Virus record (IMG/VR): IMGVR_UViG_3300037418_003885
Location: 7,249-71,248 of that record
Length of the DNA: 64,000 nt
Source of the DNA: a virus
Direction: 5' to 3' (one strand)
Shown: one piece after another, positions 2,116 through 16,013 of the stretch
How positions within the stretch are numbered: position 1 is the stretch's first letter
How the letters are laid out: every line of letters begins with the position of its first letter
The notes under the pieces: generated by a model
What the model was told of the DNA's origin: nothing
Databases searched by the model: none
What the model saw: only the letters and a program-made list of their open reading frames with translations
Made by a program: the position numbers and the translations under genes

Positions 2116-2121
2116 TAACAG

Positions 2122-2931
2122 ATGTTGCATTTAACCTCGATTCAATCTTTAGGTCCTGATAACTTTAGTCAGTATCGAAGCAACGGCAGGTACTCCATGG
2201 GCAATGGATTATACCTTCAAGTCCGAAAAGGTAGCCGCACGTGGATATATCAGTTTATGATCAATGGCAAGTCGTTCCAAATGGGCTTTGGAAGTGTCCG
2301 TGATGTGTCGCTAGGCGAGGCGCGGAATGCTGTTGCGGAAGCTCGGAAGTTGGCCAAGCAGGGCGTCAATCCAATTGAGCGCCGACGTGCCGAGCGGTTT
2401 GAACCGTCCAAGCATGTCCGATCGCTGACACAGGAAGAGCTACTAAGTCTGCTTAATTATGAGCCGACGACCGGAATGTTCACTTGGAAGCCAAGACCGA
2501 ATCTCCCCAGCTTCAAACGAATTAATGAACCTGCTGGTTTCCGCAAGGATAACTACATAGTTATTAAAATCGGCAACAAAAGCTATCCGGCTCATCGTTT
2601 AGCGTGGCTCTATATGACCGGGGAGTTGCCGCCCGCGTCGATGCTTATTGACCACAAGAATGGCAAACGCGATGATAATCGCTGGGATAACCTCCGGCTT
2701 GCAACGCCGGTGCAAAATTCGATGAACCGTGCTGTGCCCCGCAACAACACCTCAGGGCACATCGGCGTAACCCGCGAATTCAAGACCGGAGAAGAACGGT
2801 GGAGAGCAAAAATCAATTTCAATGGGCTTCGCCGCGATCTCGGCCACTACGCCACGATAGATGAAGCAATTGCTGCTCGTCGCGCGGCGGAGGCAAAGCT
2901 GCATGGCGAGTGGGGAGGACACGTGAGGTAA
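2122..2931 (+). CDS. Fusion of an integrase arm-type DNA-binding domain, HNH endonuclease and AP2-like domain
   Basis: N-term 'GNGLYLQVRKGSRTWIYQF...MGFGS..DVSLGEAR...GVNPIE' (arm-binding); 'AHRLAWLYMTGE...IDHKNGKRDDNRWDNLR' (HNH); 'NNTSGHIGV...WRAKI...LGHY' (AP2). Confidence 0.8.
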   Translation: MLHLTSIQSLGPDNFSQYRSNGRYSMGNGLYLQVRKGSRTWIYQFMINGKSFQMGFGSVRDVSLGEARNAVAEARKLAKQGVNPIERRRAERFEPSKHVRSLTQEELLSLLNYEPTTGMFTWKPRPNLPSFKRINEPAGFRKDNYIVIKIGNKSYPAHRLAWLYMTGELPPASMLIDHKNGKRDDNRWDNLRLATPVQNSMNRAVPRNNTSGHIGVTREFKTGEERWRAKINFNGLRRDLGHYATIDEAIAARRAAEAKLHGEWGGHVR

Positions 2932-2973
2932 TTGCCATATAGGAGCGATCTCTCGTCCCCGTAAATTTTTATA

Positions 2974-3034
2974 GGTAGAGGCGCTAAATGTGTCCTCTTT
3001 CCCTTCATTCACTGTTTAGCGCCAGCGGGCGTGG
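2974..3034 (+). repeat. Array element copy 1 (degenerate)
   Basis: ggtagag at 2974; AGCGCCAGCGGGCGTGG at 3018-3034; 3' end diverged. Confidence 0.6.
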
Positions 3035-3467
3035 CTGTCAGTGAATCCTATGGATACGGATTAGCTGCGAGCGCCCGTTCAAGCTCCGACTGGCTTATTT
3101 TTCCAGTATAGAAGGCCAAGAAGGTCTGTTGATGCACGCCGTCGCTCGCGCACGGAGAGATAAGTTTCGGTTGACAATTCGTTCAAAGTTGGTAATATGG
3201 AGTGTCTCTTGTGGGGGCTGCGATGGCGAACACATCCAAACGGAAGGCGCGCGCAGCGAATGCTGCGTCGGCTGCGGGCCGGCTTAAGTCGGCGCCGTCT
3301 GTGCGCCTGTCGAAGGCAAGCCGCAAAACGCAATTCAAGGAATCTCGAAAACCGGCGAGGCAGGGTGATGAACACAGTCAAATACATTGATTCGCTGAAG
3401 CGCCCACAGTTTGGTAGACGAGAACACAGGAGATATCATAACCGTATGGTGAAGAATTAACGAACCT

Positions 3468-3758
3468 ATGCTCCAGGCGGCGCACCGCCACTCGCTGGAC
3501 AACCGCGAGATTCTGGCTGCCGGCGGTCAGTGCGGCTGCTTCCACTGCTTACGCACCTTCGATGCTGGAGAGGTGATTAATTGGGGAGGGCGAGGCAGTA
3601 GTAATGCCGTCTGCCCCCATTGTCACTATGATACCGTTCTATCGGGCGCGGTTGACCCAATCGACGGGGGGTTCCTAAGGCAAATGCAGGCGCGGTGGTT
3701 TGGCGGCAAGGGCACACCACTCAATCTCTCGGCGGCGTCGCCCGAGAAAGCTGGCTAG
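3468..3758 (+). CDS. Small Cys-rich (CxCxxC...CPxC) conserved protein, copy 1
   Basis: AHRHS..NR, CGCFHC and CPHC motifs; near-identical paralog at 12540-12851. Confidence 0.8.
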   Translation: MLQAAHRHSLDNREILAAGGQCGCFHCLRTFDAGEVINWGGRGSSNAVCPHCHYDTVLSGAVDPIDGGFLRQMQARWFGGKGTPLNLSAASPEKAG

Positions 3759-3772
3759 CATGTCGGGATTGC

Positions 3773-3846
3773 GGGTAGACCGCGCGAGTCATGGGTAATC
3801 TGCAATCGGCCTGGAGCGTCGCCCGTCAACGGGCGTGGATGGCGCT
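3773..3846 (+). repeat. Array element copy 2
   Basis: gggtagac..atgggtaa..tcaacgggcgtggatggcgct. Confidence 0.9.
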
Positions 3847-3869
3847 GAGCAGTCGAGCGAAGACAGGCG

Positions 3870-4502
3870 TCAGTGCTTCTGACGCCAGTTGGCGAACGGG
3901 AAGGTTCCGTCATCGGCGGTATCGGGACCATCCCAGGGCCAGTATCCACCTGACCATTTCTGATAAGCGTCCACGGACGCATTGTCCCAGCCATTCGCGG
4001 CTATCCACGCCATGATCTCCGGGGCGAAGCGCGGACGACGACGTTGCTCTCCTTTTGGCGCAGGCAAGCCGACCATGTGACAGAAGCCACGGTTCGCGCG
4101 GACCTCGTCAGCATTCTCACCTGATACTAGGACTACAGCATCGCCCACTGGGAATTCGTATCCTCCCTCCCAGTCGCCACCCGGATCGTCGCCTCCAACA
4201 GCGCCGTGAAGCAGTGGCTTTGCTGATCGAACCATGAACGGGATCGCTTCGTTTTCCTCGATGCCGATTTCGGCCAGCATGCCATAGTGGGTTTCTTCAT
4301 AGGCATCCCAGACAAACACTTCGTCATGGACGGCGAATCCACGCAGATGTTTTGTCGCTGCGAGCCGCTGCAAATCGCGCGGGCTTAATTTGGTCCACAG
4401 ACCGGCAGAAACGAGCTTTGCCTCCCGCAAGGCAAGCGCGTCGGCCTCCTGCCCCTCAACCAATGTCATCCACCGTCGCAAATCGTTTTTCGCGTCCCTC
4501 AT
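3870..4502 (-). CDS. Leader-bearing cassette protein (MRDAKNDLRRWMTLVE), function unknown
   Basis: Start reassigned to the ATG 5 nt after TAAATA (tattta 4508-4513); shared leader. Confidence 0.75.
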   Translation of the reverse strand: MRDAKNDLRRWMTLVEGQEADALALREAKLVSAGLWTKLSPRDLQRLAATKHLRGFAVHDEVFVWDAYEETHYGMLAEIGIEENEAIPFMVRSAKPLLHGAVGGDDPGGDWEGGYEFPVGDAVVLVSGENADEVRANRGFCHMVGLPAPKGEQRRRPRFAPEIMAWIAANGWDNASVDAYQKWSGGYWPWDGPDTADDGTFPFANWRQKH

Positions 4503-4539
4503 GACTCTATTTAGAGACATACCGCAAGTTGCACTCTTT

Positions 4540-4613
4540 GGGTAGAGCGCCGCACTTCAGGGTAACCCTGATCGGCGAATGGTCGCCGTCTGCCAGCGGG
4601 CGTGGATGGCGCT
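4540..4613 (+). repeat. Array element copy 3
   Basis: gggtagag..cagggtaac..gccagcgggcgtggatggcgct. Confidence 0.9.
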
Positions 4614-4623
4614 GGACCCGTTT

Positions 4624-5205
4624 TTAGTCCTTGCGGAAGCGCGAGAAGGCGGCTCGTGCAGCCAGTTCATCTGCCTTGTCTTGCGTTGAGTACTGATTCC
4701 AAAACGCGCGGAAGGAGCCTCCATAAAGCTGCCTGAAGGCTCTGATCGCCGTGGGCCAATCGCGCTTCGTAACCGCGCCGCTAATGGTTTGCTCCAACTC
4801 TGCCTGCGAGGGCGACTTGCGCTTTGTCGGTATGCGCTTCAGCCCAGCCTTGAACGCATCAACTTCTTCTTCATACCAGGACGTGCCGTTGTTCCAGTAG
4901 TTCAGGAGCGCCTGATAATTCAGTGCAACCCATTGAATGACGAGGGGGGCGTACTCGTTCTTAACTTGTTCGGGTAGTGAGTTGGCTTCCACTCTAGGCG
5001 GGCGGCTGATGGTAACCGAGAAGCTCGGCTGGTCGTTCCCAGCGCGGCCTGCAAAGTATTTTACGCGCGCCCCGTGTTCGCCTTGCGCTGTGGAAATGTA
5101 CACGGTGCCGGGAATACCGGTTCGGTTTTCCCGTAGGTTAGCCATTTCAAACAGTGGCAGATCGGCCACCGCGACCTGCTCGTTCATGATCTCGTTCGCG
5201 CGCAT
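4624..5205 (-). CDS. Leader-bearing cassette protein (MRANEIMNE), 'MANL..TGIP..HGARVK' phage family
   Basis: TAAATA at 5226-5231 upstream; stop codon 10 nt from an array element. Confidence 0.7.
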   Translation of the reverse strand: MRANEIMNEQVAVADLPLFEMANLRENRTGIPGTVYISTAQGEHGARVKYFAGRAGNDQPSFSVTISRPPRVEANSLPEQVKNEYAPLVIQWVALNYQALLNYWNNGTSWYEEEVDAFKAGLKRIPTKRKSPSQAELEQTISGAVTKRDWPTAIRAFRQLYGGSFRAFWNQYSTQDKADELAARAAFSRFRKD

Positions 5206-5323
5206 ATCAAATCCGTGTTTCGGCCTATTTATGGTCTCGTCAGGGCAGCGGACATTATTATAGCAGGCGCTTAACATTCTGTCGAGCCGACGGGCTGGGT
5301 CGAGTGACTGATCTCACTTTCTT

Positions 5324-5395
5324 TGGTAGAGCACCAATTATGGGTAACACGCGCCCGACTTGAGAAATTCAGCGTCAGCGGGCGTGGATGGCGCT
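5324..5395 (+). repeat. Array element copy 4
   Basis: tggtagag..atgggtaac..ttcagcgtcagcgggcgtggatggcgctgaa. Confidence 0.9.
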
Positions 5396-5402
5396 GAACC
5401 AA

Positions 5403-5834
5403 TTACATGATGTTCTGCCGGCTCAGCATGAGTGGAGAGTTATAGATGACGCTCTCATAGATGGCCAAGCATGCCTGCCAGTCCTGCGCACTCTCTTCCC
5501 ACTGTTCCTCTAGGAGGCCGTGGTCTGCACCGGCGATGTGAGTGAGGACGGGGAAGTCGATCATGTTTTCATCTACTTGAAAGCCGCCGTGATGGAAGTC
5601 CGCCAGCGGCATGGCAAAGATAGCGGGCCGTCCGCCAGAGTCCGCGCACTCAGCTTTGGCGAAGTACCGGGCGACACGCAGTGTACCCCAATGGTTTGGC
5701 GCCAACAGGCCAACGCTGAGAATATCTTTAACGTGCTTTGACGACGTCCCGTGGTAAAGGACAGTCGGCAAGTCAAATTCTTGCGTCTCCACCAATCGCA
5801 TCCACCGTCGCAAATCGTTTTTTGTGTCGCCCAT
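5403..5834 (-). CDS. Leader-bearing protein (MGDTKNDLRRWMRLVE) with possible ADP-ribosyltransferase-like fold
   Basis: 'LYHGTS...ILSVGL' HGT motif; TAAATA 5 nt upstream (5840-5845). Confidence 0.6.
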   Translation of the reverse strand: MGDTKNDLRRWMRLVETQEFDLPTVLYHGTSSKHVKDILSVGLLAPNHWGTLRVARYFAKAECADSGGRPAIFAMPLADFHHGGFQVDENMIDFPVLTHIAGADHGLLEEQWEESAQDWQACLAIYESVIYNSPLMLSRQNIM

Positions 5835-5870
5835 CAGCTTATTTACAACTTACCACAAGTTGCGTCCTAT

Positions 5871-5935
5871 GGGTAGAGCGAGCACTTCATGGGTAACTGG
5901 CGCTGATTCGCCTGCCAGCGGGCGTGGATGGCGCT
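5871..5935 (+). repeat. Array element copy 5
   Basis: gggtagag..atgggtaac..gccagcgggcgtggatggcgct. Confidence 0.9.
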
Positions 5936-5958
5936 AAACTAGAGCTTCAACCGGTCTC

Positions 5959-6528
5959 TTAGGGTTTTGCCTTCTGATTAGCACGAGCCATATTTGCTCG
6001 TCTGGCAGCCGCACGCGCCTTTCGCTCATCCGCTTTTTGTAAGAGATATGGCAGATGTTGGCGCATGGGCTGTTGGTGCACCGGCGCAGATGAAGAACCC
6101 TCGACGTCCTCGGGGGGTGCGGGCGAAATCTCTCGCTTGTCGTCTTCGTTCATCTGTTGCTTCCTATATCGCATTGTCTCCGTTGGTCCAGCCTTGTAAA
6201 CTGAGATTACCCTAATCCACGTGTCTCCGGAAGTGTCGGAGAGATCGTCCTCAATTTCTTGATAGATTACCACCAAGAGGCTGCCACTTGCATCCGGGGC
6301 GATCAGTTTGATCCGCTCTTCACCCTCCTCGAAGATAACATCGAACTGACCGAGCGCCGAGAACAGTAGCGGGCCTCCATCCTCCAGAGCCAACCCGTGA
6401 TTTATTCGATTTGAAGCATCTTTGGCATTCTGCCATCCGATATGAAATACGCGCCCTTGAAAGGTTACCGTCTTCCAAGTCTCTCGTTGAGCCGGGGCAG
6501 CTTCGCGTAGGATGTCGCAGTATCGCAT
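5959..6528 (-). CDS. BrnT-like toxin domain with N-terminal leader (MRYCDILRE) and basic C-terminal tail
   Basis: 'W..AK.ASN..NHGL', 'LLVVIY', 'IRVISVYKA' match the BrnT pattern; TAAATA 4 nt upstream (6533-6538). Confidence 0.65.
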   Translation of the reverse strand: MRYCDILREAAPAQRETWKTVTFQGRVFHIGWQNAKDASNRINHGLALEDGGPLLFSALGQFDVIFEEGEERIKLIAPDASGSLLVVIYQEIEDDLSDTSGDTWIRVISVYKAGPTETMRYRKQQMNEDDKREISPAPPEDVEGSSSAPVHQQPMRQHLPYLLQKADERKARAAARRANMARANQKAKP

Positions 6529-6549
6529 CGGATATTTAGCCTGATTCGC

Positions 6550-6623
6550 GGGTAAATCCCACGGATCATGGGTAGCCCGCATCCGACCTGCGAAATTTAG
6601 CGCCAGCGGGCGTGGATGGCGCT
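6550..6623 (+). repeat. Array element copy 6
   Basis: gggtaaat..atgggtag..ttagcgccagcgggcgtggatggcgct. Confidence 0.9.
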
Positions 6624-6856
6624 GAGCGTCGTCATCGGCGCGCGATCTCCATCATCTCTCGCATCGAGGCTGGGCCGCCAAACTGACTTTGAAAACGCCG
6701 GGCGTATGTCGCAAGCGGCACCCCACCACGCCCCGCAGCTATAATCGCTTCGGCCTGCTGCGCTTTCTGCCAACCAACCCCTCGGTAGTCGTCTGTGCGC
6801 GTAAACAAGACACCCTTACGATTTAACACAAAAGGATCAAACCCCCGGAGGAATTT

Positions 6857-6881
6857 AGCGTCAGCGGGCGTGGATGGCGCT
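6857..6881 (+). repeat. Array element copy 7 (core only)
   Basis: agcgtcagcgggcgtggatggcgct, overlapping the stop codon of the 6881-7441 gene. Confidence 0.85.
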
Positions 6882-7441
6882 TAATTACCCGCCAGCTTCT
6901 TATTTTTGGGGGGTTGATCGCCGTTGGCTGCGGCTTGCCGCGCAAGGTAGGCTTGCCGCTTCTCCTTCTGCTGCTTAATCTTGGCAGCAATGCGATCTCC
7001 CCACCGTCCAGCCTGCTGGACGGGTTTCGCCTTGAGCTTGGGCGTTGTGTCCTCGTTCATTCCTACCTCCCTAATATCATTCGGTGTTGCTTTCCAGACT
7101 GAAATCAGGCGGGCGGCAGGTTCTTCCGCAGGTTCTGCTTCATCATCATGTACCCACTGGCAAATCACAACCAGCAGTACGTTGCTCTCTCCATATCCCA
7201 CAACCTTGTCCACCTCCTGACCCTGCTCATCGGTCTGAACGACGAAGCGATTGTCGGGATTGGCGATCACTGGAATGCCGTCGCGGAGCCTCAAGCCGTC
7301 GTGTTTGCCGGGATTCGCGGCTTCCTTATCGACCGTCCACCCGACGTTAATGGGGCCATACGGCGTCTCAACTCGTTCCCAATGCTCGGGCAGCAACGGG
7401 GAGACCGCTTCGATAATTTCACGCATCGTGGGGTAGCACAT
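6881..7441 (-). CDS. Second BrnT-like protein with leader (MCYPTMREIIE)
   Basis: 'W..DKEAAN.GKHDGL', 'LLVVIC', 'RLISVWKA'; TAAATA 5 nt upstream (7447-7452). Confidence 0.65.
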   Translation of the reverse strand: MCYPTMREIIEAVSPLLPEHWERVETPYGPINVGWTVDKEAANPGKHDGLRLRDGIPVIANPDNRFVVQTDEQGQEVDKVVGYGESNVLLVVICQWVHDDEAEPAEEPAARLISVWKATPNDIREVGMNEDTTPKLKAKPVQQAGRWGDRIAAKIKQQKEKRQAYLARQAAANGDQPPKNKKLAGN

Positions 7442-7467
7442 GTTTTTATTTACCCCTGTCGATGGAA

Positions 7468-7482
7468 GGCGTGGATGGCGCT
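7468..7482 (+). repeat. Array element partial copy
   Basis: ggcgtggatggcgct only. Confidence 0.7.
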
Positions 7483-7508
7483 GGCCTAAGGTATTGGTGT
7501 GGTTTTTT

Positions 7509-7581
7509 TGGTAGAGCACGCAGTCATGGGTAGGCCGAACTCTAACAAGATCGGCCAGCGTCAGCGGGCGTGGATGGCGCT
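7509..7581 (+). repeat. Array element copy 8
   Basis: tggtagag..atgggtag..cagcgtcagcgggcgtggatggcgct. Confidence 0.9.
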
Positions 7582-7585
7582 GAAA

Positions 7586-8077
7586 CTAGGTTTTTTCAGG
7601 CGTCAAGACGCTATGCGGATCAACCAACATAACCTCAGAACCGGTCATCCAGCCGCTGGCTAAGCCGCGCAGCGCCTCAGCAAGGTCTGGTCGATAGTAG
7701 GATTGGCCACCGAACGCAGCGCGACAAAGCCGTTCAAAGTTGTCCTGACCGTGGAAGGTTAGATCGATCATCTCGACGTCGGCGACGGTGCGAAAACGCA
7801 GCGTGCGTTCAACACCGGGATCATGGCCTGCGCGATGTAGGCCACGCGCCTTCCATCTGCCGGTTTCGTATGTGGTAAAGAAGGCGGGGCCTCGCGGGAT
7901 ATCAAAAGATTGAACGGCATCAGTGACATGAAACAGGATGCTGTCCTTGGGAAGCACGGTTTTTGCTATACGGGCGACGGCGCGGACAAGCTTCGCTTGT
8001 GCTGTCGGGTCTAGTGCCTCCCGCCCCTCAACCAACCGCAGCCACCGTCGCAAATCGTTTTTCGTGTCGCCTGTCAT
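7586..8077 (-). CDS. Leader-bearing protein (MTGDTKNDLRRWLRLVE), possible ART-like fold
   Basis: Shared leader; 'LFHVT...PAFFT...EVML' pattern. Confidence 0.65.
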   Translation of the reverse strand: MTGDTKNDLRRWLRLVEGREALDPTAQAKLVRAVARIAKTVLPKDSILFHVTDAVQSFDIPRGPAFFTTYETGRWKARGLHRAGHDPGVERTLRFRTVADVEMIDLTFHGQDNFERLCRAAFGGQSYYRPDLAEALRGLASGWMTGSEVMLVDPHSVLTPEKT

Positions 8078-8310
8078 GATTGTAAAAATCGGATTAATTC
8101 AAATAGTTCGGCCAAACATGTATTTCGGATGTGTGCGCCGTCGCCGGTTATACTAGCTGAGCGTAGCCAATCAGCGAGCCGGCGCGCCTCTGCCAGTACA
8201 GCAGCCGGATCATCTGCGGCTTGATTCCATAGATCGGTCACGCGCTGATCCAACCGCCTTCGCAGCAGCCTATAATCGGGCTCTACTTCAAATAATTCAT
8301 GGTATCTCAC
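8074..8310 (-). CDS. Small protein with leader-like start (MRYHELFE)
   Basis: Overlaps both neighbouring ORFs (translational coupling). Confidence 0.65.
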   Translation of the reverse strand: MRYHELFEVEPDYRLLRRRLDQRVTDLWNQAADDPAAVLAEARRLADWLRSASITGDGAHIRNTCLAELFELIRFLQS

Positions 8311-8533
8311 GCGCCAATTCCTCGTCGGAGCGCATCGCGCCGCGCTGCTGCATAGCCCGAAGTTCCTGATCGGACGGACAGTCGATGCCGCGCAGTGCGC
8401 GCAAATAATTGCCTATTGCTGCCTCGATCGCGTCCTCAGCAACGCCTCGCGCACGGAAAACGCTGCACAAGGCGCGATAACGAGCTTCGGGTAGCCCCAG
8501 CCGGCCCGCTACGGATTCCTCATTCATCAACAT
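8297..8533 (-). CDS. Small hypothetical protein (MLMNE)
   Basis: TAAATA 5 nt upstream (8539-8544). Confidence 0.6.
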   Translation of the reverse strand: MLMNEESVAGRLGLPEARYRALCSVFRARGVAEDAIEAAIGNYLRALRGIDCPSDQELRAMQQRGAMRSDEELAREIP

Positions 8534-8637
8534 AACCCTATTTAGCTGGGCGGAACTTTAACAGGCGGGCGATAAAAATCAAGACTTACTAGCGATGGTT
8601 GTATTTGCAGCGGACATAGCTGCAATCTCCCGCTTCC

Positions 8638-8710
8638 TGGTAAAGCAAACATTTACGGGTAAACGTGATGGATGGACAATCGGCCGAATTCAACGGGCGT
8701 GGTTGGCGCT
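8638..8710 (+). repeat. Array element copy 9
   Basis: tggtaaag..cgggtaaa..caacgggcgtggttggcgct. Confidence 0.8.
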
Positions 8711-8798
8711 GAACTCAGTTTATTTCCTGCGTCAAGTTGTTGACAAAACCGTACATTTTGATACGATCGGCCAATCGGGGCAAGCATCTTACGGGAGT

Positions 8799-9050
8799 AT
8801 GAACAGGATGAGTGATCGGTGGCACACAAAACAACTTTCGACCGGCAACCTGTTGATTATGGCATCGGAAACGCTGGTTGTTGGCAGCATCGTCCAGAAT
8901 GGCGGTAGATGGTTAGTTGAAGTCCCCTTCTGCGGAACCAATCTGACGTTTGACGCCCCGGATTATACATCATGTCTCGCGTTCATCGAAGGCGTCGAAC
9001 AAACTATCGCTGTGATTTCTGCTGCTGTGGCATTGCGGCAAAAGCCGTGA
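8799..9050 (+). CDS. Hypothetical protein
   Basis: GGAG RBS; sigma70-like TTGACA (8740)..TACGAT (8762) upstream. Confidence 0.5.
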   Translation: MNRMSDRWHTKQLSTGNLLIMASETLVVGSIVQNGGRWLVEVPFCGTNLTFDAPDYTSCLAFIEGVEQTIAVISAAVALRQKP

Positions 9051-9080
9051 CGCCTCAGTCCGGGTCACACGCCGATTTGC

Positions 9081-9144
9081 TGGTAGATTAGGCCGTTTGT
9101 GGGTAACCCGCTCGCGGCTTGCGCCAGCGGGCGTGGATGGCGCT
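9081..9144 (+). repeat. Array element copy 10
   Basis: tggtagat..gtgggtaac..gcgccagcgggcgtggatggcgct. Confidence 0.9.
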
Positions 9145-9152
9145 GAAGCGAT

Positions 9153-9251
9153 CTAGACGACGGCAGGATAGGTGCGCCCCACAAACTGATCCAGTACCGG
9201 CTTTTCGGCCATATGAACCAACCGCATCCACCGTCTTAAGTCGCTTTTATG
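9153..9251 (-). pseudogene. Remnant cassette: leader with almost no payload
   Basis: Reads HKSDLRRWMRLVHMAEKPVLDQFVGRTYPAVV* between two elements; no upstream ATG and the promoter motif has decayed (TAAACG). Confidence 0.7.
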
Positions 9252-9270
9252 ATCGTTTAGTGCGGTTCGC

Positions 9271-9343
9271 TGGTAGATCACACGCACTATGGGTAACCAG
9301 CATCCGACTTGAGGAACCCGGCGCCGGGGGCGTGGATGGCGCT
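9271..9343 (+). repeat. Array element copy 11
   Basis: tggtagat..atgggtaac..gcgccgggggcgtggatggcgct. Confidence 0.85.
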
Positions 9344-9349
9344 TGGGGG

Positions 9350-9835
9350 TCAGCGCCGTGCGGGCGGTTCAAATGCCAGAGCCTGTTCGATCGTCCAGGG
9401 ACACTGTGCCGGAAATCGCGAGCGGGCGACACCGGTCTCCGTCGCGGCGGCTCGCACTGCATGCGGATATGCCTCCGCGTATAGCTTGTCCTGATAATTC
9501 TTCAGACTTGGTGTGCTGGTGAGGAGAGCAATAATTTGGCGTTGCTGCTCCAGAACAGTCAGCGCCCAGCTTCGGGAGGCGCGACCGGGCTGGACCTGAT
9601 ATTTCAGCAGGTGTTGTAGCAACCGTACAAAATGATTCCCCAACTCGCGACGGTCGCGAATAGTCATTTCCGTCAGATACTGGACAAGATTTTCGCGATC
9701 AACCGCGTCCAATTTTCCGGCCTTCAGAAGGGCAATCTGCTCAAGCATCCACTGATGCTCGTCGGCTTCATATGACGAACGCGAGCCGCCGCCAGCGATG
9801 TCGATAAGCGTCCGCATGTCGGTCTTGTCGTTCAT
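9350..9835 (-). CDS. DUF29-family protein with N-terminal leader (MNDKTDMRTLIDIA)
   Basis: YE.D...W..EQ..LL, LLQHLLKYQ.QP, SRSW, FP.QCPW motifs; TAAATA 5 nt upstream (9841-9846). Confidence 0.85.
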   Translation of the reverse strand: MNDKTDMRTLIDIAGGGSRSSYEADEHQWMLEQIALLKAGKLDAVDRENLVQYLTEMTIRDRRELGNHFVRLLQHLLKYQVQPGRASRSWALTVLEQQRQIIALLTSTPSLKNYQDKLYAEAYPHAVRAAATETGVARSRFPAQCPWTIEQALAFEPPARR

Positions 9836-9946
9836 AAGCTTATTTAGGCGCACCTCGCGCAATTGTCAATTAACGCCTTCATCGTGCAACCTCCGGTTAC
9901 GCCGATGAGCCAGTCCCATGGCAGAGCGCACGCACGGTATGCGATG

Positions 9947-10144
9947 TCAATAATATGCAACCAAAGGATCGACGCCTGCTTCCGCGCACCGTTCAGCAAT
10001 TTCGCGCAGGATTTCCCGCTTCCGCTCCGTGCGCCGCGAGCCGCTGTTGCGATACAAGTCGTCGTCCGCATCGGTGATCCCTAACGCGGCCCGTCTGGCG
10101 TCGATCTCCTTCGCCAACTCGTAGTGGTCAATTTCGTCGGACAT
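9947..10144 (-). CDS. Small hypothetical protein
   Basis: ORF with plausible RBS; 'RNSGSRRTERKR' motif. Confidence 0.55.
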   Translation of the reverse strand: MSDEIDHYELAKEIDARRAALGITDADDDLYRNSGSRRTERKREILREIAERCAEAGVDPLVAYY

Positions 10145-10319
10145 CTTTCTTCCCAGCGAATAGTGAGATATCGCCGCCCTCGTCGGCCACGCGCTTCGTA
10201 AGATAATTCAAATCCAGTTGGCCGCCAAGCCGCTTGAGAAGTCGCGTGAACGAGTGCAAGGCGAGTCCCATAGCGCCGTCATCCGTCGTGTGATATTCAG
10301 GCGATGAACTAAATATGTC

Positions 10320-10754
10320 ATGGATATACGCTCTGCCATGAAGCTCGTTGAAGGTCTATACGACGATGAGCCAGATTCCGACGCACCCTGGTCCTTTGGG
10401 TGGTGGATATGGCCGAACGGCTCAGTGGACGAATGTCCAGATGAGGGCACCCATGTCGATCTGGCGTGGGACGTGCTAGACCGCCAGGGCGACCCGGACG
10501 ACGCGATTCACATTATGCTGGAGAAAGGCGCCATCCGCATCGCCACGTTCCACGGCTCCAATGAAATGAACATCAACTTCGACTCCCGGCACGTGACGCC
10601 TGTCGCCCGTAAATCACTGGCGCGCCTGCTTGTGCAAACCCGCTCCTGGTTCATGCGCTACCACTTCGACGACGCTAGCTTGCATGGAACTACCGGTCAT
10701 GTTTTGCGCATCTTAAGCTACCGGGAGGCAATGGCTGTCGCGCGCGGCAGGTAA
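10320..10754 (+). CDS. Leader-bearing protein (MDIRSAMKLVE)
   Basis: TAAATA at 10310-10315, 4 nt upstream. Confidence 0.75.
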   Translation: MDIRSAMKLVEGLYDDEPDSDAPWSFGWWIWPNGSVDECPDEGTHVDLAWDVLDRQGDPDDAIHIMLEKGAIRIATFHGSNEMNINFDSRHVTPVARKSLARLLVQTRSWFMRYHFDDASLHGTTGHVLRILSYREAMAVARGR

Positions 10755-10774
10755 TCGAGGTCTCATCCGCGTCA

Positions 10775-11233
10775 CTAACGCCACCGCTCTGGGTCACGCA
10801 CACGGCCTTCCTGATCTAGGATCGAATCAAAATCGGCAACACGTGCCGGCCCGTCTTCCACGCCGCGTCGTAAGGCTGCTTCCACTCGGTGCGTGCCGTC
10901 CCACAAAACCAGTTTGCCATTGTGCCGGTAGACGAAGGGCAGGTCGGCGTCAGAATGGTCAATGTAATGTTGCACGCGCGCCGGATAAACTGAATGTTCG
11001 ATTGCCACTAGATCAGGATAGTGCACAGTCTCGACAGTAGCGCGACGTTCGGCGTACTTGATGGCGTTGAGCTTGATCCCACTCATGCGCTGATTGTCGC
11101 CGGGCAGTGGACCCCACGGGTATCGATCATGGCCCCAGAACGCGAGATGATGCGGCTCACGATCAGCTTTATCCCACCGGCTCTCCACCACTGTCATCCA
11201 CCGTCGGATATTGCTTCGAAGATTGTCTACCAT
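10775..11233 (-). CDS. Leader-bearing protein (NLRSNIRRWMTVVE) with ParB/Srx-like domain
   Basis: 'PFVYRHNGKLVLWDGTHRVEAA' DGxHR motif; TAAATA 6 nt upstream. Confidence 0.7.
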   Translation of the reverse strand: MVDNLRSNIRRWMTVVESRWDKADREPHHLAFWGHDRYPWGPLPGDNQRMSGIKLNAIKYAERRATVETVHYPDLVAIEHSVYPARVQHYIDHSDADLPFVYRHNGKLVLWDGTHRVEAALRRGVEDGPARVADFDSILDQEGRVRDPERWR

Positions 11234-11264
11234 AGCTAATATTTAGCGGCAAAATGCGCAGATC

Positions 11265-11321
11265 ATGGGTAACCCCATCCGATCAAGGGGGTGTCACCTG
11301 TCAGCGGGCGTGGATGGCGCT
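11265..11321 (+). repeat. Array element copy 12
   Basis: atgggtaac..gtcagcgggcgtggatggcgct, running directly into TAAATA (11321-11326). Confidence 0.9.
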
Positions 11322-11331
11322 AAATATGCGC

Positions 11332-11667
11332 ATGGTGCACAGTATGCGATCTCTGATCACGCTCGTAGAGGCGGTGAACCGCCAATCCGACATCGAAGCC
11401 CTGCCCGACCAGTGGCAGCAGGTGATTCTACAAAAGGTGGTCGAGTACGTGCGCTATCTCGCATCATCGAACCGCTCGTGGCATCGCGGGGCAGCAGACT
11501 ACCATCGCGATCGCAATACCAACAAGGACGCGGATGACGCGGTCGAGGCATGGTGGGAGGCGGGCGCGCCGGTCCCTGAGATCGATGGACTGGGCATTCC
11601 CAGCGACGGGGCAGCCTTCAATGCATGGGCACGATCTTATATCGGATTGGAGCCGAAAGATCAGTGA
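11332..11667 (+). CDS. Leader-bearing protein (MVHSMRSLITLVE)
   Basis: ATG 5 nt after TAAATA; flanked by two elements. Confidence 0.7.
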   Translation: MVHSMRSLITLVEAVNRQSDIEALPDQWQQVILQKVVEYVRYLASSNRSWHRGAADYHRDRNTNKDADDAVEAWWEAGAPVPEIDGLGIPSDGAAFNAWARSYIGLEPKDQ

Positions 11668-11672
11668 TTCCT

Positions 11673-11746
11673 TGGTAAATCACGCAGGCTATGGGTAACC
11701 TGCACCCGGCCTAATACGCCGGCAGCCAGCGCGCGTGGATGGCGGT
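11673..11746 (+). repeat. Array element copy 13
   Basis: tggtaaat..atgggtaac..gccagcgcgcgtggatggcggt. Confidence 0.85.
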
Positions 11747-11856
11747 GAAAGGCGCGGGCTCCTCGTCATCCACGCCCGCAAGAAGGTCTTCTTCGTGAAG
11801 AGTCCGCTTGTCGTCGGCGCACGCCTATGTCTAAATATGAGGCATTGGAGTACGGC

Positions 11857-12456
11857 ATGAAGTGGACCGATATCAAGAGCCGGCTTGACGAGAACCCGCG
11901 CTCTATTCCCCAGCCGAAGGCGACGCGCTACGACGATCCGGTCTACAACAAGCGCTTTGCGGCGGACAAGTTGGCGCGGCAGACGGAAGTGATTGAGCAA
12001 CGCCCCGATTCGCGCATCATTCGGACCGGCGACGGCCATCGCGGCTGGATTATGCTCTACAATGACGCCCAACAAACGGCAGATTATGTGGTGCAATACG
12101 CGACGAGGCGTTGGCCGTTTCTCAATTCCCGCACCATCACGCAGGTGGAAATCTGGCGCGATCCGACAAGCCCGTTCGCGGCCGGCATCACGAAGCGCAT
12201 GTTCTTTGATTACCTCCCAGCGCGCTACGGGGCGATTATGAGCGACCGCGTCCAAACCCCGCAGGGCCACGATTTTTGGCAGACGAGGCTGAGAGATGCC
12301 GTGCAGCTTGGCCTTCACGCTGGCGTTGTTGGCTTGAACGAGAAGCAGGTGCGGTGGTTTGATCCGGCCGCCGGTCAGACACTCGCACAGTGGTTGGCCG
12401 CGACATATGGACCGAAGCACCATTTTGAGGCGATACGTTATCTGATCACCACGTGA
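11857..12456 (+). CDS. Protein with leader-like start (MKWTDIKSRLDE), possible GNAT-like fold
   Basis: TAAATA at 11832 and GGAG RBS; 'GITKRMF..IMSDRVQTPQG..FW' resembles phage GNAT-like proteins. Confidence 0.6.
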   Translation: MKWTDIKSRLDENPRSIPQPKATRYDDPVYNKRFAADKLARQTEVIEQRPDSRIIRTGDGHRGWIMLYNDAQQTADYVVQYATRRWPFLNSRTITQVEIWRDPTSPFAAGITKRMFFDYLPARYGAIMSDRVQTPQGHDFWQTRLRDAVQLGLHAGVVGLNEKQVRWFDPAAGQTLAQWLAATYGPKHHFEAIRYLITT

Positions 12457-12539
12457 TGCTGCGGCGTGGCGCCTCGCGACCTACGCGCTGCCGGTGTGAC
12501 CGCTGTGGTAGACGAAAACACAGGAGATATCATAACCGT

Positions 12540-12851
12540 ATGATGAAGATTAACGAGCCTATGCTCCAGGCGGCGCACCGCCACTCGCTCGACAACCGCC
12601 AGAGTCTGGCGGGCGGGGGTGAATGCGGCTGCTTCCACTGCCTGCGCACCTTTCATGCCAGCGAGGTGACCGCCTGGGGTGGCCGAGGTGCCAGCACCGC
12701 CGTCTGCCCGTATTGTCACTATGACACCGTGCTGTCGGGCGCTGTTGATCCCATCGACGCGGGGTTTCTGAGGCAGATGCAGGCACGGTGGTTCGGTGGC
12801 AGGGGCACGCCGCTGAATCTTGCCGCAACGTCGCCTGCCAAGGCCGGCTAG
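12540..12851 (+). CDS. Small Cys-rich protein, copy 2
   Basis: Paralog of 3468-3758, including ~55 bp of upstream DNA. Confidence 0.8.
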   Translation: MMKINEPMLQAAHRHSLDNRQSLAGGGECGCFHCLRTFHASEVTAWGGRGASTAVCPYCHYDTVLSGAVDPIDAGFLRQMQARWFGGRGTPLNLAATSPAKAG

Positions 12852-12862
12852 GCGCTTGGGTC

Positions 12863-12937
12863 TGGGTAGAGCAAGCTAGTCACGGGTAACCCGCACCGAC
12901 CTTCGTGCGCCGGCTGTCAGAGGGCGTGGATGGCGCT
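12863..12937 (+). repeat. Array element copy 14
   Basis: tgggtagag..acgggtaac..gtcagagggcgtggatggcgct. Confidence 0.9.
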
Positions 12938-12938
12938 G

Positions 12939-13577
12939 TTACTTTTTGCGCAAGATGAAAAAGATATCCTTTTGCGGGTCGGCGCTGTTGAAGCTCCACA
13001 ACTCAGGATCAATATCCGAATCTCTGGGGCCATGATCGATCAAGGCGTCGAGCGCGATCACCTTATTCGCAGAAACATCGACGACGTCAGTCGCAAAATC
13101 CGGCTCACGACTGAGCGACGCCCAAAGCCGCCGCGCACCGAGATACTGATTATAATCACAGATGATCGTATATCCGTGCCTCTCTATAAAGTAGCGCAAC
13201 ATTGTCTTAGCGATACCTGAGCCAATCAGCGATTTGGCTGCGCCTGCCGCATAGGATCGATAGAGCCGAGGATATTTTAAGCGATGTCCGAGTTGTCTCT
13301 CGCCGCGAAAGTTGATGAAAAACACGATATCATAAACCTGAACCGGCGTTCCGGTCCGTTGTTGGGTCTTTGTTACCAGACGGCCGACCTTCCAGGCATT
13401 TTCTACACGGTGGCGTAGCACATCATAAACAACCGGATTGCCCGCAAACTGAATTGTGTCGATCTTCCGCCAGTCCGCGTCCGCCACCGCTTTAGAAAAT
13501 TCAGCAATGTTCGCTGGGTCATAATCCCAGTTGCCATGCTTAGCGATCGGCGCCTCAACGATTTGTTCCCAACGCAT
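12939..13577 (-). CDS. Leader-bearing protein (MRWEQIVE), GNAT-like
   Basis: 'LIGSGIAKTMLRY..IICD..QY.GARRLW' resembles the acetyl-CoA-binding GNAT motif; stop codon 1 nt from an element. Confidence 0.6.
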   Translation of the reverse strand: MRWEQIVEAPIAKHGNWDYDPANIAEFSKAVADADWRKIDTIQFAGNPVVYDVLRHRVENAWKVGRLVTKTQQRTGTPVQVYDIVFFINFRGERQLGHRLKYPRLYRSYAAGAAKSLIGSGIAKTMLRYFIERHGYTIICDYNQYLGARRLWASLSREPDFATDVVDVSANKVIALDALIDHGPRDSDIDPELWSFNSADPQKDIFFILRKK

Positions 13578-13756
13578 ACTGTGCCTCGATCCTCAACCCA
13601 TACGCCGCGCTTAAGGATTGTTTACCATCAAACTCAAGAGCGTAGCAGGTCTCTCGGCTTTGGCAAGAGATTTCCGGGCCTTGTGGCCACGGCCATAAAT
13701 AATTTTGGACAATCGCTGCCCCTCTTGCTACCGTAAGGGGCCTATCGAGAACCGTC

Positions 13757-14032
13757 ATGACCGCCATCGATTGTATAGCGCTGAGCCTGAGCGTTCCACT
13801 ACCCGAGCCGCTGCGTGCCATAGACGTTGTTAGGCTCGTTGAAGCGGACGCTGTCGATGCGCGCTCGCGGGTGATCCTTGAGGCATTCTTAACCGAGATT
13901 AGCCAGGACCGCATCGCTGAGGCGGTCTTGGAAGGCAGCCTGTCGTTTGGCCAGATCGTGCATGTCGCCGAGGCCAATGGTCTTCGAGATACGCCCACGG
14001 CTCGTTGGAGCCGCGAGATGAGCGGATCATGA
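13757..14032 (+). CDS. Putative antitoxin partner of the AbiEii-like toxin
   Basis: Small ORF whose stop overlaps (ATGA) the start of the nucleotidyltransferase. Confidence 0.55.
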   Translation: MTAIDCIALSLSVPLPEPLRAIDVVRLVEADAVDARSRVILEAFLTEISQDRIAEAVLEGSLSFGQIVHVAEANGLRDTPTARWSREMSGS

Positions 14033-14688
14033 ACTGGCCGAATGCGCAGTCGGCTCGTCTTTTTGGCCTGATACAACCTGCATTGCAGGCGCTACCGAAC
14101 GATCTATCCTGGTCTTTGGGTGGCGGAACGGCGCTGACAATGTGGCTTGATCATCGCTTGAGTCACGATATCGATTTGTTTTTTGAATCGGCCAGAGCAT
14201 TACGCTTGCTGTCCCCGAATCGGAATCCTCTGACAAAGGCGATCACACCCAAAACGCAGCAGCCGGGCAATTATTTGAAGTTTGAAGTCGCGGGGGTCGG
14301 AGAGATCGACATCCTGGTAATACGGGACTGGACGTCAACACCGACCAAGAAAGTGACCGTTGGGTTAGTGCCCATGGATGTCCAGACACCTGCTGAAATA
14401 CTCGCCCGTAAAATCGCCTACTGCGCAACGAATTTCCAGGTACGAGATTTTTTTGACCTAGCGGCGACCGCTCTGTTTGCGACGCAGGAGTTAGTCGCAT
14501 TGCGCCCTCCCCTGACCGGCAAGCGTGCGGTGTTGGCTCAACGCTGGAAGGTCCTTGAGCCGCAAATCGAGCAATCCGTTAAGGCGGTCACTCCGACGGC
14601 GCGGGGCTCTACAGTTGTGCCGCACATGCGTTACGTGATTGGGCGCCTACTGGGCATCGTCTCGAAGAACGCGCTGGGTAGCTCCTGA
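14029..14688 (+). CDS. AbiEii/AbiGii-family nucleotidyltransferase toxin
   Basis: 'LGGGTAL...HRLSHDIDLF', 'EILARK', 'RDFFDL' motifs. Confidence 0.85.
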   Translation: MNWPNAQSARLFGLIQPALQALPNDLSWSLGGGTALTMWLDHRLSHDIDLFFESARALRLLSPNRNPLTKAITPKTQQPGNYLKFEVAGVGEIDILVIRDWTSTPTKKVTVGLVPMDVQTPAEILARKIAYCATNFQVRDFFDLAATALFATQELVALRPPLTGKRAVLAQRWKVLEPQIEQSVKAVTPTARGSTVVPHMRYVIGRLLGIVSKNALGSS

Positions 14689-14743
14689 TTGCAGGCTTGG
14701 CGGCATTCGAAATCAGCCGCCAGCCCCTTCCTGGGCGCTGACC

Positions 14744-15256
14744 CTACGAGTCTTTGGCGGAGTTCCACCCAATCAGCCCGCAAATGCCCTCGACGGTGGC
14801 TGGCGCATACCCAATGAAACGTCCATTTCGAAAGACATCCTCACCATCGGCTCCAGCCCTAAGCTCATATTCTCGGCTGGTGAACACGGCCACTTTGTCT
14901 CCGCCTCCGACATAGAACTCCGACATGACCTGCTGGTAAGCGTGACGCAGGGACGCAAGATCATGAAACGCAAAGCTCGACAGTCCGCGCTCTGGACTGT
15001 AACACCACAGCTTGCTCTTGGGGTCTTGCAGTGGCTTTCGCAACAACGATGATGTCTTTGCCAATTCCACGGCTTCTTGGTGGTCCGCCGTCCATGTGCC
15101 AGCATAACAACTGAAGTTCCTCTGGAGGTCCCCATCCGGGTCAGCCGTATCTCGCAAAAAATACATTGGGGCGGCTCCCGGTCGTTCAGGCTTCTTAGCT
15201 TGCGCCTCAACCAACTGCATCCACCGTCGTAACTCATTTGTCGTATCGCTGATCAT
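14744..15256 (-). CDS. Leader-bearing protein (MISDTTNELRRWMQLVE)
   Basis: Shared leader; TAAATA 5 nt upstream (15262-15267). Confidence 0.75.
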   Translation of the reverse strand: MISDTTNELRRWMQLVEAQAKKPERPGAAPMYFLRDTADPDGDLQRNFSCYAGTWTADHQEAVELAKTSSLLRKPLQDPKSKLWCYSPERGLSSFAFHDLASLRHAYQQVMSEFYVGGGDKVAVFTSREYELRAGADGEDVFRNGRFIGYAPATVEGICGLIGWNSAKDS

Positions 15257-15267
15257 GCGCGTATTTA

Positions 15268-15332
15268 GGGGTAATACAAGCGATTACGGGTAAACGGCAG
15301 TCGTACGGGGCACAGAGGGCGTGGACGGCGCT
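15268..15332 (+). repeat. Array element copy 15 (last seen)
   Basis: ggggtaat..cgggtaaa..acagagggcgtggacggcgct. Confidence 0.8.
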
Positions 15333-15509
15333 ACCGTGACAACGGAGATAGCCGTCTCGGCGCGTGCATTGCTCATCGTCACTTCGGGAGGAAGGCACTG
15401 GCGGACATTAACAGCGCGGTGTACCACAAGGGCGTAGAAGCGGCTCTGGCGCTGATGCAGTGGATGCGCTGAGGTTGCTTTGTCGCGCCTTTGCCAGTAA
15501 TCGGCTAGC

Positions 15510-16013
15510 ATGCGCGACGACGTCGTTACCGCCGGCTATATCGCAGAGACGGCGCGGGAAACCTTCGAACCGCTCTGGGTTGGATGGAAGCGGGCTTGCG
15601 GCCATCCCGATCCAGAGCGGCCACCAGCCTCATTGGATGCCTGCATCCCCAGCAGCATTGCCCTTTGCGAGATAATGAACCGCGTTCTGTATCACGACGG
15701 CTGGCGGTTCCGCGTGACCGGCGGGCGGCCGACCAAAAAGACCCCGCAGGGCGGCTTTTGGATGAACGGGCGTGGGGGCACCCACGCCTGGGTCGCTGGC
15801 TGGGACGTCCGTCATCGCCGACGCATGGTCATCGACATCACCGCCGACCAGTACGGCGGCTCGGCGGTTTACTGCGAACCCACCTCGGCGTATCACGTCG
15901 CCAACTATAGTCACAGCACGATCAAAATGTTTTACCAGCGGGAACGGCTGAATGCTGAACTCTGGACGATGGCGCTTGTCTTTGCCTTACAAGAGCCCCC
16001 GTTCCATAGGTGA
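15510..16013 (+). CDS. Hypothetical protein, possible Cys-His-Asp (transglutaminase/papain-like) fold
   Basis: 'AC..SS', 'THAWV', 'IDITADQY' pattern. Confidence 0.5.
   Translation: MRDDVVTAGYIAETARETFEPLWVGWKRACGHPDPERPPASLDACIPSSIALCEIMNRVLYHDGWRFRVTGGRPTKKTPQGGFWMNGRGGTHAWVAGWDVRHRRRMVIDITADQYGGSAVYCEPTSAYHVANYSHSTIKMFYQRERLNAELWTMALVFALQEPPFHR

Follow-up and report, generated by a model that had tools for sequence, protein, structure and literature searches.

The 64,000-nucleotide window analysed here comprises bases 7249–71248 of the 71,248-base IMG/VR virus record IMGVR_UViG_3300037418_003885 (CheckV completeness 19%), and all coordinates below count from the first base of that window. 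Near its left end lies an array of about fifteen small accessory-gene units between 16 same-direction copies (E1 to E16) of a composite repeat, here called the element. All 16 copies are intergenic and on the + strand, and they fall at 3014–15333, within 12.4 kb. Read on that strand, a full copy is 70–80 bases long and consists of box1 (GGTAGA or GGTAAA), 13–15 variable bases, box2 ((T)GGGTAAC), a variable spacer and a 20-nt core, CAGCGGGCGTGGATGGCGCT. The majority of the genes in the array point leftward, and five units carry rightward genes; the orientation of the element is constant, matches this majority direction and is independent of the direction of the individual genes.

Detection and inventory of the element

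At up to three mismatches the core has 14 matches, all on the + strand and all between 3827 and 15332, where shuffled sequences would lead one to expect 0.01. A 14-mer applied at up to one mismatch to the whole 71,248-base record gave 15 forward matches and one reverse match, every one of them within the array. An nhmmer profile built from 12 copies was then run across the entire 71-kb record; it returned 13 full-length copies (E 4e-19 to 9e-12), all on the + strand, together with one half copy at 6849–6884 (E 9e-7) and partial cores at 3014–3037 (E 0.012) and 7465–7484 (E 0.018). No further match in the record reached E < 0.2, so the other ~59 kb is without the element. This profile search recovered all 16 positions listed in a preliminary description of the window, and confirms the array described there, in which composite elements of one orientation delimit gene units that face either way. 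Its count of about 16 elements holds insofar as all are real and co-oriented, but three of them are fragments and 13 are full-length.

The junctions occupied by the 13 full copies are of every kind: seven are tandem leftward, three convergent (E2, E11 and E15), two divergent (E10 and E13) and one tandem rightward (E14), and the copies at convergent junctions are among those with the best profile scores. E1 (2974–3042), 43 nt past the end of an HNH gene, is degenerate; it has a box1-like GGTAGAG and keeps, of the core, the half nearer the boxes. E2 (3769–3848; 64.3 bits) is a full copy between the + gene 3468–3758 and the − gene 3870–4502, and E3 (4536–4616; full, 54.9 bits) lies between two leftward genes. 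E4 (5320–5398) is full, and the leftward gene downstream of it has its own sigma-70-like promoter at 5285–5257. E5 (5868–5938) is a full copy with a short spacer (30 bp from box2 to core) that matches E3 from the core through the leader codons of the adjoining gene. E6 (6546–6625), also full, is upstream in the leftward sense of a BrnT-like gene at 5959–6528.

E7 (6849–6884) is the half copy, made of the core and 15 nt with no boxes; this core-only copy separates a toxin-like, BrnT-like gene (6881–7441) from a 65-aa open reading frame (ORF) at 6632–6829. E8 (7465–7484) is a truncated core, its box-distal 15 nt, fused to the TAAATA promoter of 6881–7441, and we read it as a deletion scar. E9 (7504–7584; 63.8 bits) is full, as is E10 (8634–8713), which stands at a divergent junction with a sigma-70-like + promoter at 8740–8767. 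E11 (9077–9147) is a full copy of the short-spacer class (29 bp), at which one contig from sequencing run X5 is strongly different. The 126-nt unit to the left of E12 (9267–9344; full) holds only a truncated leader gene, 9153–9251. E13 (11244–11324) is full with a degenerate box1, and the end of its core overlaps the TAAATA of the + gene 11332–11667. E14 (11668–11749; full) sits between two + genes and is followed by an inverted 13–15-nt core fragment at 11765–11779. E15 (12861–12939; full) comes after a paralogue of the gene that precedes E2, and E16 (15264–15333; full, short-spacer class with 30 bp) is the last in the array.

Conservation and spacing within the element

Conservation is concentrated in the three blocks. 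Averaged over pairs of copies, identity is 93% for the core, 88% for box2 and 82% for box1, and falls to 51% between the boxes and 42% in the spacer. The distances between blocks are nearly fixed. Box1 and box2 are 20 bp apart in nine copies (including the degenerate E13), 19 in three and 18 in one, which agrees with the 18–20 bp given in the preliminary description for its two GGTA(G/A) boxes. From box2 to the core anchor the distance is 39 bp in eight copies and 38 and 40 bp in one each, and a short class has 29 bp (E11), 30 bp (E5) and 30 bp (E16); the long and short classes thus differ by about one helical turn. Since E5 is otherwise a near copy of E3, with a 9-nt gap in its spacer, at least one of the spacer shortenings was independent.

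Other shared features are less regular. The complete inverted repeat AGCGYCA/TGGCGCT occurs in four copies only (E4, E6, E7 and E9), and four of the 13 spacers contain CCGAC. The right half of the core (TGGATGGC) looks to the eye like box2 (TGGGTAAC), which hints weakly that the element might hold three same-direction boxes on one helical face. Tracts identical between copies run from 7 to 29 nt with a median of 16, reaching at least 20 nt in 29 of 91 pairs. Two BrnT-like paralogues of the array are only 33% identical as proteins, and the cores upstream of them are identical at 20 of 20 positions; it is therefore specific positions that have been kept, rather than whole tracts. From this position-specific conservation, the fixed and phased spacing and the lack of RNA structure (below), we infer that a protein recognises the element as a DNA signal. 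The fixed, helically phased spacing likewise fits the suggestion in the preliminary description of a box-plus-core architecture resembling a recombination site, to the extent that a protein–DNA site is meant.

Arrangement of units and their promoters

In the leftward direction the order at a junction is the stop codon of the upstream gene, the core 0–23 nt further on, the spacer, box2, box1 and, after another 12–57 nt, the start codon of the next gene. For the 10 leftward genes that abut an element the stop is thus 0–23 nt from the core, within the 0–30 nt noted earlier for stops beside elements. In nine of the 13 full copies the boxes precede, on the leftward strand, the start of the next leftward gene.

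Nearly every unit carries a promoter-like signal of its own, either TAAATA-N4-6-ATG or a sigma-70-like site. Of 37 TAAATA hexamers in the record, 17 lie 4–6 nt before the ATG of an ORF of at least 40 aa, and 11 of these 17 fall within 4502–17493. Such sites are also scattered outside the array, for example at 29439, 38332, 59674 and 62890. No Shine-Dalgarno sequence is evident ahead of the starts associated with TAAATA. We take TAAATA to correspond to the T4-late-type promoter consensus, and the signal may be a late-type promoter that gives a leaderless mRNA. Sigma-70-like sites matching 10–11 of 12 positions occur at 3171–3198 (+), 8740–8767 (+) and 5285–5257 (−). Two Cys-rich paralogues of the array share a 95%-identical upstream piece (3412–3455 and 12506–12549), in which a box1-like GGTAGA occupies the −35 place, 17 nt before TATCAT, with the ATG 6 nt later.

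Footprints of unit turnover

Comparisons within the array show past duplication and truncation of units and their re-joining, the breakpoints lying at the element or inside it. The match between E3 and E5 begins at the first core base and takes in both boxes, the TAAATA, the ATG and the leader codons; the sequences to either side are unrelated. The two Cys-rich units match from the box1-like GGTAGAC at the promoter, through the gene and the element after it, to the last base of the core. Among the three pairs aligned, the two with clear boundaries have their homology ending within about 2 nt of the outer core edge. The core fragments E1 and E8 and the inverted piece at 11765–11779 (20 nt from E14) all retain the central CCACGCC, and E8 and E1 keep opposite halves of the core. 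The shortest unit is 126 nt and has only a leader-gene stump inside. Homologous and site-specific recombination cannot be told apart from these footprints, since crossing over within the core would have the same outcome.

Genes of the array

The genes between the elements had been called unrelated in the preliminary description, a claim refuted by a leader family of seven to nine members and by paralogous pairs of BrnT-like and of Cys-rich, zinc-finger-like genes. Members of the leader family have about 20 N-terminal residues (…NDLRRWM.LVE…) in common and share nothing else. One, at 3870–4502 (−), adjoins E2; other full genes with this N-terminal leader are at 5403–5834, 7586–8077, 10775–11233 and 14744–15256. 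A remnant at 9153–9251 is the 32-codon stump of the 126-nt unit, and one gene, 17239–17493, lies outside the array. A looser form of the leader, still ending in LVE, is found in two rightward genes, 10320–10754 and 11332–11667. A search of the leader region against 5.8 billion proteins returned only itself, and no other protein at near lengths.

The BrnT-like gene at 5959–6528 (−) matches PF04365 at E 1e-7, under the cut-off, and its paralogue at 6881–7441 is 33% identical to it. Both have long Lys-rich C-terminal extensions, and they flank the 65-aa ORF at 6632–6829, which might encode the cognate antitoxin of the BrnT-like gene. A DUF29 gene (E 2e-38) lies at 9350–9835 (−). The first Cys-rich small gene, 3468–3758 (+), is zinc-finger-like and assigned to phrog_30788; its paralogue at 12540–12851 has ~80% DNA identity to it, and each is followed by an element. 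Within the last unit an AbiEii-type nucleotidyltransferase gene at 14005–14688 (+; E 4e-11) overlaps a 91-aa upstream ORF (13757–14688 together), and the two are possibly an AbiE-type pair in a phage of virulent type.

The array is headed by an HNH gene at 2122–2931 (+), which combines Arm-DNA-bind_3 (E 4e-20) with HNH_3 (E 7e-16) and ends 43 nt before E1. Its product belongs to a common family of phage HNH homing endonucleases found in 2837 phage records. It is one of three free-standing genes of homing-endonuclease type, the others being at 97–1236 (−), which is LAGLIDADG-like with HTH (helix-turn-helix) domains, and at 34572–36017 (−), which has GIY-YIG and NUMOD3.

The phage

The phage appears from its gene content to be an uncultured, T4-related member of the PA5oct/Atu_ph07 lineage from soil, and its complete genome is probably that of a jumbo phage of several hundred kb. 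Its G+C content is 56% over the 71-kb record and 57% within the array. The T4-type content of the window includes a gp32 single-stranded DNA-binding protein (PF08804), a helicase and weak RecA-family pieces; gp32 shares 43–44% identity with its counterparts in Pseudomonas phage PA5oct, in relatives of PA5oct and in Agrobacterium phage Atu_ph07. Genes for GIY-YIG, HNH and LAGLIDADG homing endonucleases are encoded in the window as well, along with inteins. The RecA-family pieces are two (54537–54710 and 55664–55804), with 20.6 and 13.7 bits, below the cut-off, and an intein splicing domain lies within the same ORF (55049–56398), in agreement with the intein-interrupted UvsX proposed earlier. 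Three tRNAs were found in the window by ARAGORN, only at 41983–43123. The 71-kb fragment contains neither the prohead protease S77 (PF03420) nor a MotA-type activator (MotA_activ).

Comparison with known repeat and signal classes

We compared the element with the known kinds of short repeat and signal that it might represent. A structured RNA or terminator is ruled out: there is no conserved fold, and one terminator-like match (E15) occurs among the 13 copies. The RNAalifold consensus has three invariant pairs at −1.2 kcal/mol and no covariation, and Rfam gave no match at E ≤ 1 over window positions 1–20000. Folded as a whole on the leftward strand, the element has a mean z of −1.0, with 3 of 13 copies at −2.6 or lower; from box2 to the core, the mean z of the 13 copies against shuffles is 0.00 on the + strand and −0.17 on the − strand, so there is no excess hairpin potential. 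A T-run follows one copy only (E15), in line with the earlier remark that the element lacks a terminator U-tract.

A sigma-70 promoter is ruled out likewise, since the scan matches inside only one of the 13 full copies (E4, at 9 of 12 positions). The three strong sigma-70 matches in the region (10–11 of 12) are all outside elements, and both terminator-like and sigma-70-like sites occur in the region at background frequency. To our knowledge, judging by eye from the consensuses of heat-shock, extracytoplasmic function (ECF) and sigma-54 promoters, boxA and Chi-type hotspots, none of these fits all copies. Counts of core sub-words over the record show no enrichment outside the array.

The array is not one of clustered regularly interspaced short palindromic repeats (CRISPR), the start-to-start intervals being 99–2,395 bp and gene-containing. 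Nor is the element an attC site, as neither an imperfect palindrome nor conserved pairing, excess folding on either strand or an Rfam match was found; the fold tests, the Rfam null result and the gene-filled intervals together bear out the earlier exclusion of attC, CRISPR repeats and terminators. Membership of the integrons was rejected for want of an IntI-type recombinase (PF00589) and of attC, and because the units have their own promoters; the gene next to the array joins its Arm domain to an HNH nuclease and lacks a recombinase core. A miniature inverted-repeat transposable element (MITE) or other transposon is ruled out by ends that are not inverted repeats and by the absence of a Y1 transposase, and a repetitive extragenic palindromic (REP) sequence with its associated tyrosine transposase (RAYT) by the lack of PF01797 matches and of excess hairpins. 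A tRNA-like origin is also rejected, given the confinement of tRNAs to 41983–43123. Searches for Phage_integrase (PF00589, at E ≤ 1), Resolvase and Y1_Tnp (PF01797) found none in the 71-kb record, a ~19% fragment of the genome. The record is thus without a tyrosine or serine recombinase or Y1 transposase, as the preliminary description had it for the window.

Relatives and junction contigs

To look for the element elsewhere we applied exact-match patterns to IMG/VR, JGI metagenome contigs and GTDB genomes, searches from which the window's own record may have been excluded. In viral contigs a core 16-mer matched 116 stretches, none of them the element, and those adjacent to a box were all in one unrelated conserved gene; a pattern of box2 plus core matched 22 stretches there, again none the element. 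The 20-mer core matched seven stretches of metagenome contigs, all unrelated and box-less, and the box2-plus-core pattern gave 115 single matches across many phyla in genome contigs, none the element. At the protein level the leader family had no relative in viral contigs, and an 823-aa protein none in phages or viral contigs. The HNH protein led to one distant locus, which is without comparable repeats, and the Cys-rich protein to three distant matches. Megablast of the array against phages gave no match.

The stretch is present in 12 soil or rhizosphere sequencing runs, recorded as 'DNA?', with no RNA run among them. Four of these runs (X2 to X5) were compared as Logan contigs, which are short pieces at depth 2–11; the results below concern the 32 records listed out of 135. 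In these, E2, E3, E4, E7, E8/E9, E10, E11, E12, E13 and E14 are spanned by contigs that keep the reference order, and with 0–1 differences these bridging contigs represent the same strain and are uninformative on plasticity. No supported joint at an element occurs in the listed records of the four runs. The only joint among them connects 7678 to 11553 in one X3 contig with a side of 21, below the tool's reliability guide, and its two sides fall inside genes 7586–8077 and 11332–11667 and not at an element. An entry for 7567/11403 (X2 and X4) has one side in the core of E9 and could not be interpreted. X2 and X5 do not cover 13248–15383, roughly the unit between E15 and E16; there is no joining contig, and we do not use this as evidence.

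One X5 contig (depth 6.9) differs from the window by at least eight substitutions and at least 12 indel positions at 9062–9117, which spans the boxes and spacer of E11, and by five positions in gene 8799–9050, the diverged stretch running from 8879 to 9117; X2 and X4 match the window exactly there. This single contig hints that a diverged related strain with another version of E11 exists. The preliminary description had proposed looking for outward junctions and excised circles; no excision or junction contig was seen in the contigs of the four runs. With neither a recombinase in the record nor a junction contig, the site-specific or integron mechanism that it had advanced is without positive evidence.

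Discussion

The closest known counterparts of the array are the PeSLs (promoter-early stem-loop cassettes), conserved composite intergenic promoter–terminator elements described from the hyperplastic regions of T4-type phages (PMC2839356, PMC4122927). According to the account in PMC2839356, recombination between PeSLs explains indels between close relatives and yields mini-circles; that account also notes that small patches of homology suffice for recombination in T4, and leaves open a dedicated helper protein. The PeSLs of RB49/phi1, PST/T4 and nt-1/KVP40 are, as there described and like the element here, composite, intergenic and about 70–100 bp long (PMC2839356, PMC4122927). In both cases, as far as those accounts go, they lie in a hyperplastic region of small non-essential genes in a T4-related phage, are co-oriented and flank single genes or small groups, and the portable-linker role in recombinational shuffling proposed for PeSLs is the one that we propose here.

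Our preferred reading, held tentatively and with less than even confidence, is that the element is a regulatory boundary module of PeSL-like kind, and that its repeats permit shuffling by recombination. It would be a DNA signal for a protein, with its three blocks on one helical face, box2 lying about two turns from box1 and the 20-bp core three or four turns further; the one-turn difference between the spacing classes is what a phase-dependent protein–DNA complex would produce. In this T4-related jumbo phage the element would mark where one unit ends and the next begins within a hyperplastic region of accessory genes, and would serve there as a phage-specific regulatory module for leftward transcription, perhaps a promoter or operator that depends on an activator or repressor, or else an insulator. 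Such a module would act in addition to the late-type or sigma-70-type promoter of each unit. It would in this way correspond in function to the PeSL cassettes of T4-type phages. Its 13–16 copies are direct repeats, which would let the phage's own recombination delete, duplicate or swap the units between them, and the cargo so shuffled would comprise toxin-like genes and a set of leader-tagged proteins that are probably targeted to the capsid. What we infer here is that a protein binds, that the role is regulatory and that recombination takes place. Transcriptional control is the usual reason for conserved co-oriented intergenic repeats in phages.

Several observations weigh against this reading. 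Sigma-70 hits are not enriched in the region (9 found against 7.7 ± 2.7 expected), a 9/12 match is present in only one of 13 elements (E4), and neither alifold nor the fold z-scores reveal a PeSL-type stem-loop in the element. Four of the 13 full copies (E2, E11, E14 and E15) point into the 3' end of a rightward gene, so that a leftward promoter there would give only antisense RNA, and conservation is among the highest in these antisense-facing copies. A promoter-like signal of its own is present in almost every unit, and the absence of the element from the region of replication and recombination genes means that it is not a general promoter class. Homologous recombination, offered as an alternative mechanism in the preliminary description, matches the PeSL precedent (PMC2839356), but with identical tracts of only 7–29 nt (median 16) it would be inefficient. 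Our confidence is limited because both defining features of PeSLs fail, the element faces the wrong way for four units, units have their own promoters and the tracts are short.

An unlikely alternative is a dedicated recombination or nicking site, integron-like or of homing type, in which an enzyme binds the phased boxes as arm-type sites and acts at the core, so that promoter-bearing cassettes are captured, excised or exchanged. A recombinase encoded in the ~80% of the genome that the record lacks could be this enzyme, or else the HNH nuclease with the Arm domain, encoded 43 nt from E1; in a sub-variant strand-specific nicks at the core would provide fixed entry points for recombination or for clamp-dependent late transcription. 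This would account at least as well as the preferred reading for a single orientation at all junction types regardless of gene direction, for cassettes that are self-sufficient, with their own promoters and in either orientation, for the ending of homology at the outer core edge in two of three aligned pairs, for the central CCACGCC kept by all three core fragments, and for a spacing phased like that of arm and core sites; a gene with Arm-DNA-bind_3 and HNH_3 does stand first in the array. A homologous crossover inside the core would, however, also leave homology that stops at the edge of the core, and no joint at an element was seen among four runs. The lack of Phage_integrase, Resolvase and Y1_Tnp domains from the record counts against such a site as well, though weakly in a ~19% fragment. 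The HNH family occurs in 2837 phage records and the window holds other homing genes and inteins, so its adjacency may be chance. The core itself has 5–7-bp inverted ends around an asymmetric, invariant centre, a structure unlike the recombinase core sites known to us. A specific recombinase was itself raised as a possibility by the PeSL authors, in the account cited above (PMC2839356). The more ambitious form of this idea, which we consider quite improbable, is a phage-borne cassette platform with its own bipartite site that a dedicated enzyme cuts, nicks or recombines. Such a platform would be an analogue of integrons assembled of different parts, through which jumbo phages trade promoter-bearing cassettes for toxin-like proteins and capsid-targeted effectors.

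Two explanations dispense with a DNA-binding protein. The element could act at the RNA level, as a linear signal on leftward transcripts, read by an RNA-binding protein or a nuclease, that serves as a 3'-end, processing or stability element after the upstream stop. Of 14 core-bearing copies, 10 do have the core starting 0–23 nt past a leftward stop, the element is C-rich on its leftward strand, and 3 of 13 copies fold better than shuffles (z −2.6 or lower), but we think this very unlikely: there is no conserved structure or covariation (mean z −1.0 for the whole element, about 0 from box2 to core) and no U-tract, three or four copies adjoin the 5' region of a rightward gene rather than a leftward stop, and a 10-nt spacer quantum and two-turn box spacing have no obvious meaning for RNA. 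Least probable in our view is a functionless junction repeat, an ancestral intergenic piece copied along with tandem gene duplications and homogenised by gene conversion. Several flanking genes are indeed paralogues, and within sub-families of the element identity extends past the core, to as much as 29 nt. Whole tracts would, however, be expected to become alike through conversion or recent duplication, and the 27-nt spacer has drifted to 42% with its length kept, and identical cores stand next to genes at 33% protein identity.

A PeSL is defined, in the accounts cited, by a promoter of sigma-70 consensus and a stable terminator stem-loop, whereas the array element is without both; it has instead two direct boxes and a 20-bp non-palindromic core in helical phase. 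The units of the array bring their own promoters, and elements are found at convergent and divergent junctions too. PeSL shuffling is known from comparisons of relatives, by the account in PMC2839356; the signs of unit turnover in the array are footprints internal to it.

A second counterpart is the internal protein locus of the T-even phages. According to published accounts, T-even internal proteins are variable and share only an N-terminal leader that directs packaging into the capsid (PMC12373910, PMC3012670). The leader-family proteins of the array resemble these capsid-packaged, injected proteins, though only by analogy: both loci encode otherwise unrelated small proteins with a common N-terminal leader, but the leader here (~20 residues, ending LVE) is unrelated in sequence to that of the T-even proteins. 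In the T-even phages the prohead protease removes the leader, and no such protease is encoded in the 71-kb fragment. Internal protein genes are reportedly flanked by a ~70-bp conserved sequence of promoter and inverted repeat, thought to mediate their shuffling (Repoila et al. 1994, EMBO J). The repeat of the array is not an early promoter with an inverted repeat, and the array also has leaderless toxin-like genes.

Large chromosomal integrons contain genes of toxin–antitoxin type, in units with their own promoters and in either orientation. As in the array, each gene unit of an integron ends in a conserved site of one orientation; unlike an integron, the array has no IntI in the record, no attC-like palindrome or fold and no attI or Pc, and most of its units have promoters. 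The phased boxes, with a variation of one helical turn, are also like the arm and core sites of tyrosine integrases, and like class I activator-dependent or T4 middle-type promoters, by analogy only, as there is no integrase catalytic domain, MotA-type activator or sigma-70 −10 here. REP sequences, bacterial interspersed mosaic elements (BIMEs) and their RAYTs share with the array short intergenic repeats in which a GTAG-like head is followed by variable GC-rich sequence, but the array has no Y1 transposase, a non-palindromic core, one orientation and confinement to one 12-kb region.

We conclude that the array belongs to a known kind, the repeat-bounded accessory-gene cassettes of large virulent phages, with a layout closer to that of PeSLs than to a true integron. 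What is new is a three-block, helically phased linker that is neither promoter nor hairpin and is tied to leader-tagged proteins. Hyperplastic regions are where large phages keep and exchange genes for host range, anti-defence and toxin-like functions, and how these genes move has been worked out, through PeSLs, no further than in outline and only for T4-type coliphages and vibriophages. The array represents the same bookkeeping in a GC-rich soil jumbo phage with a different linker, and it points to a specific DNA-binding factor. Its leader-tagged proteins form a clean set for the study of capsid targeting outside the T-even phages. Were the factor a regulator, this phage group would have a new class of transcription; were it a nuclease or recombinase, it would answer to the 'helper' about which the PeSL authors speculated, and this would be the first dedicated cassette-exchange system in a virulent phage.

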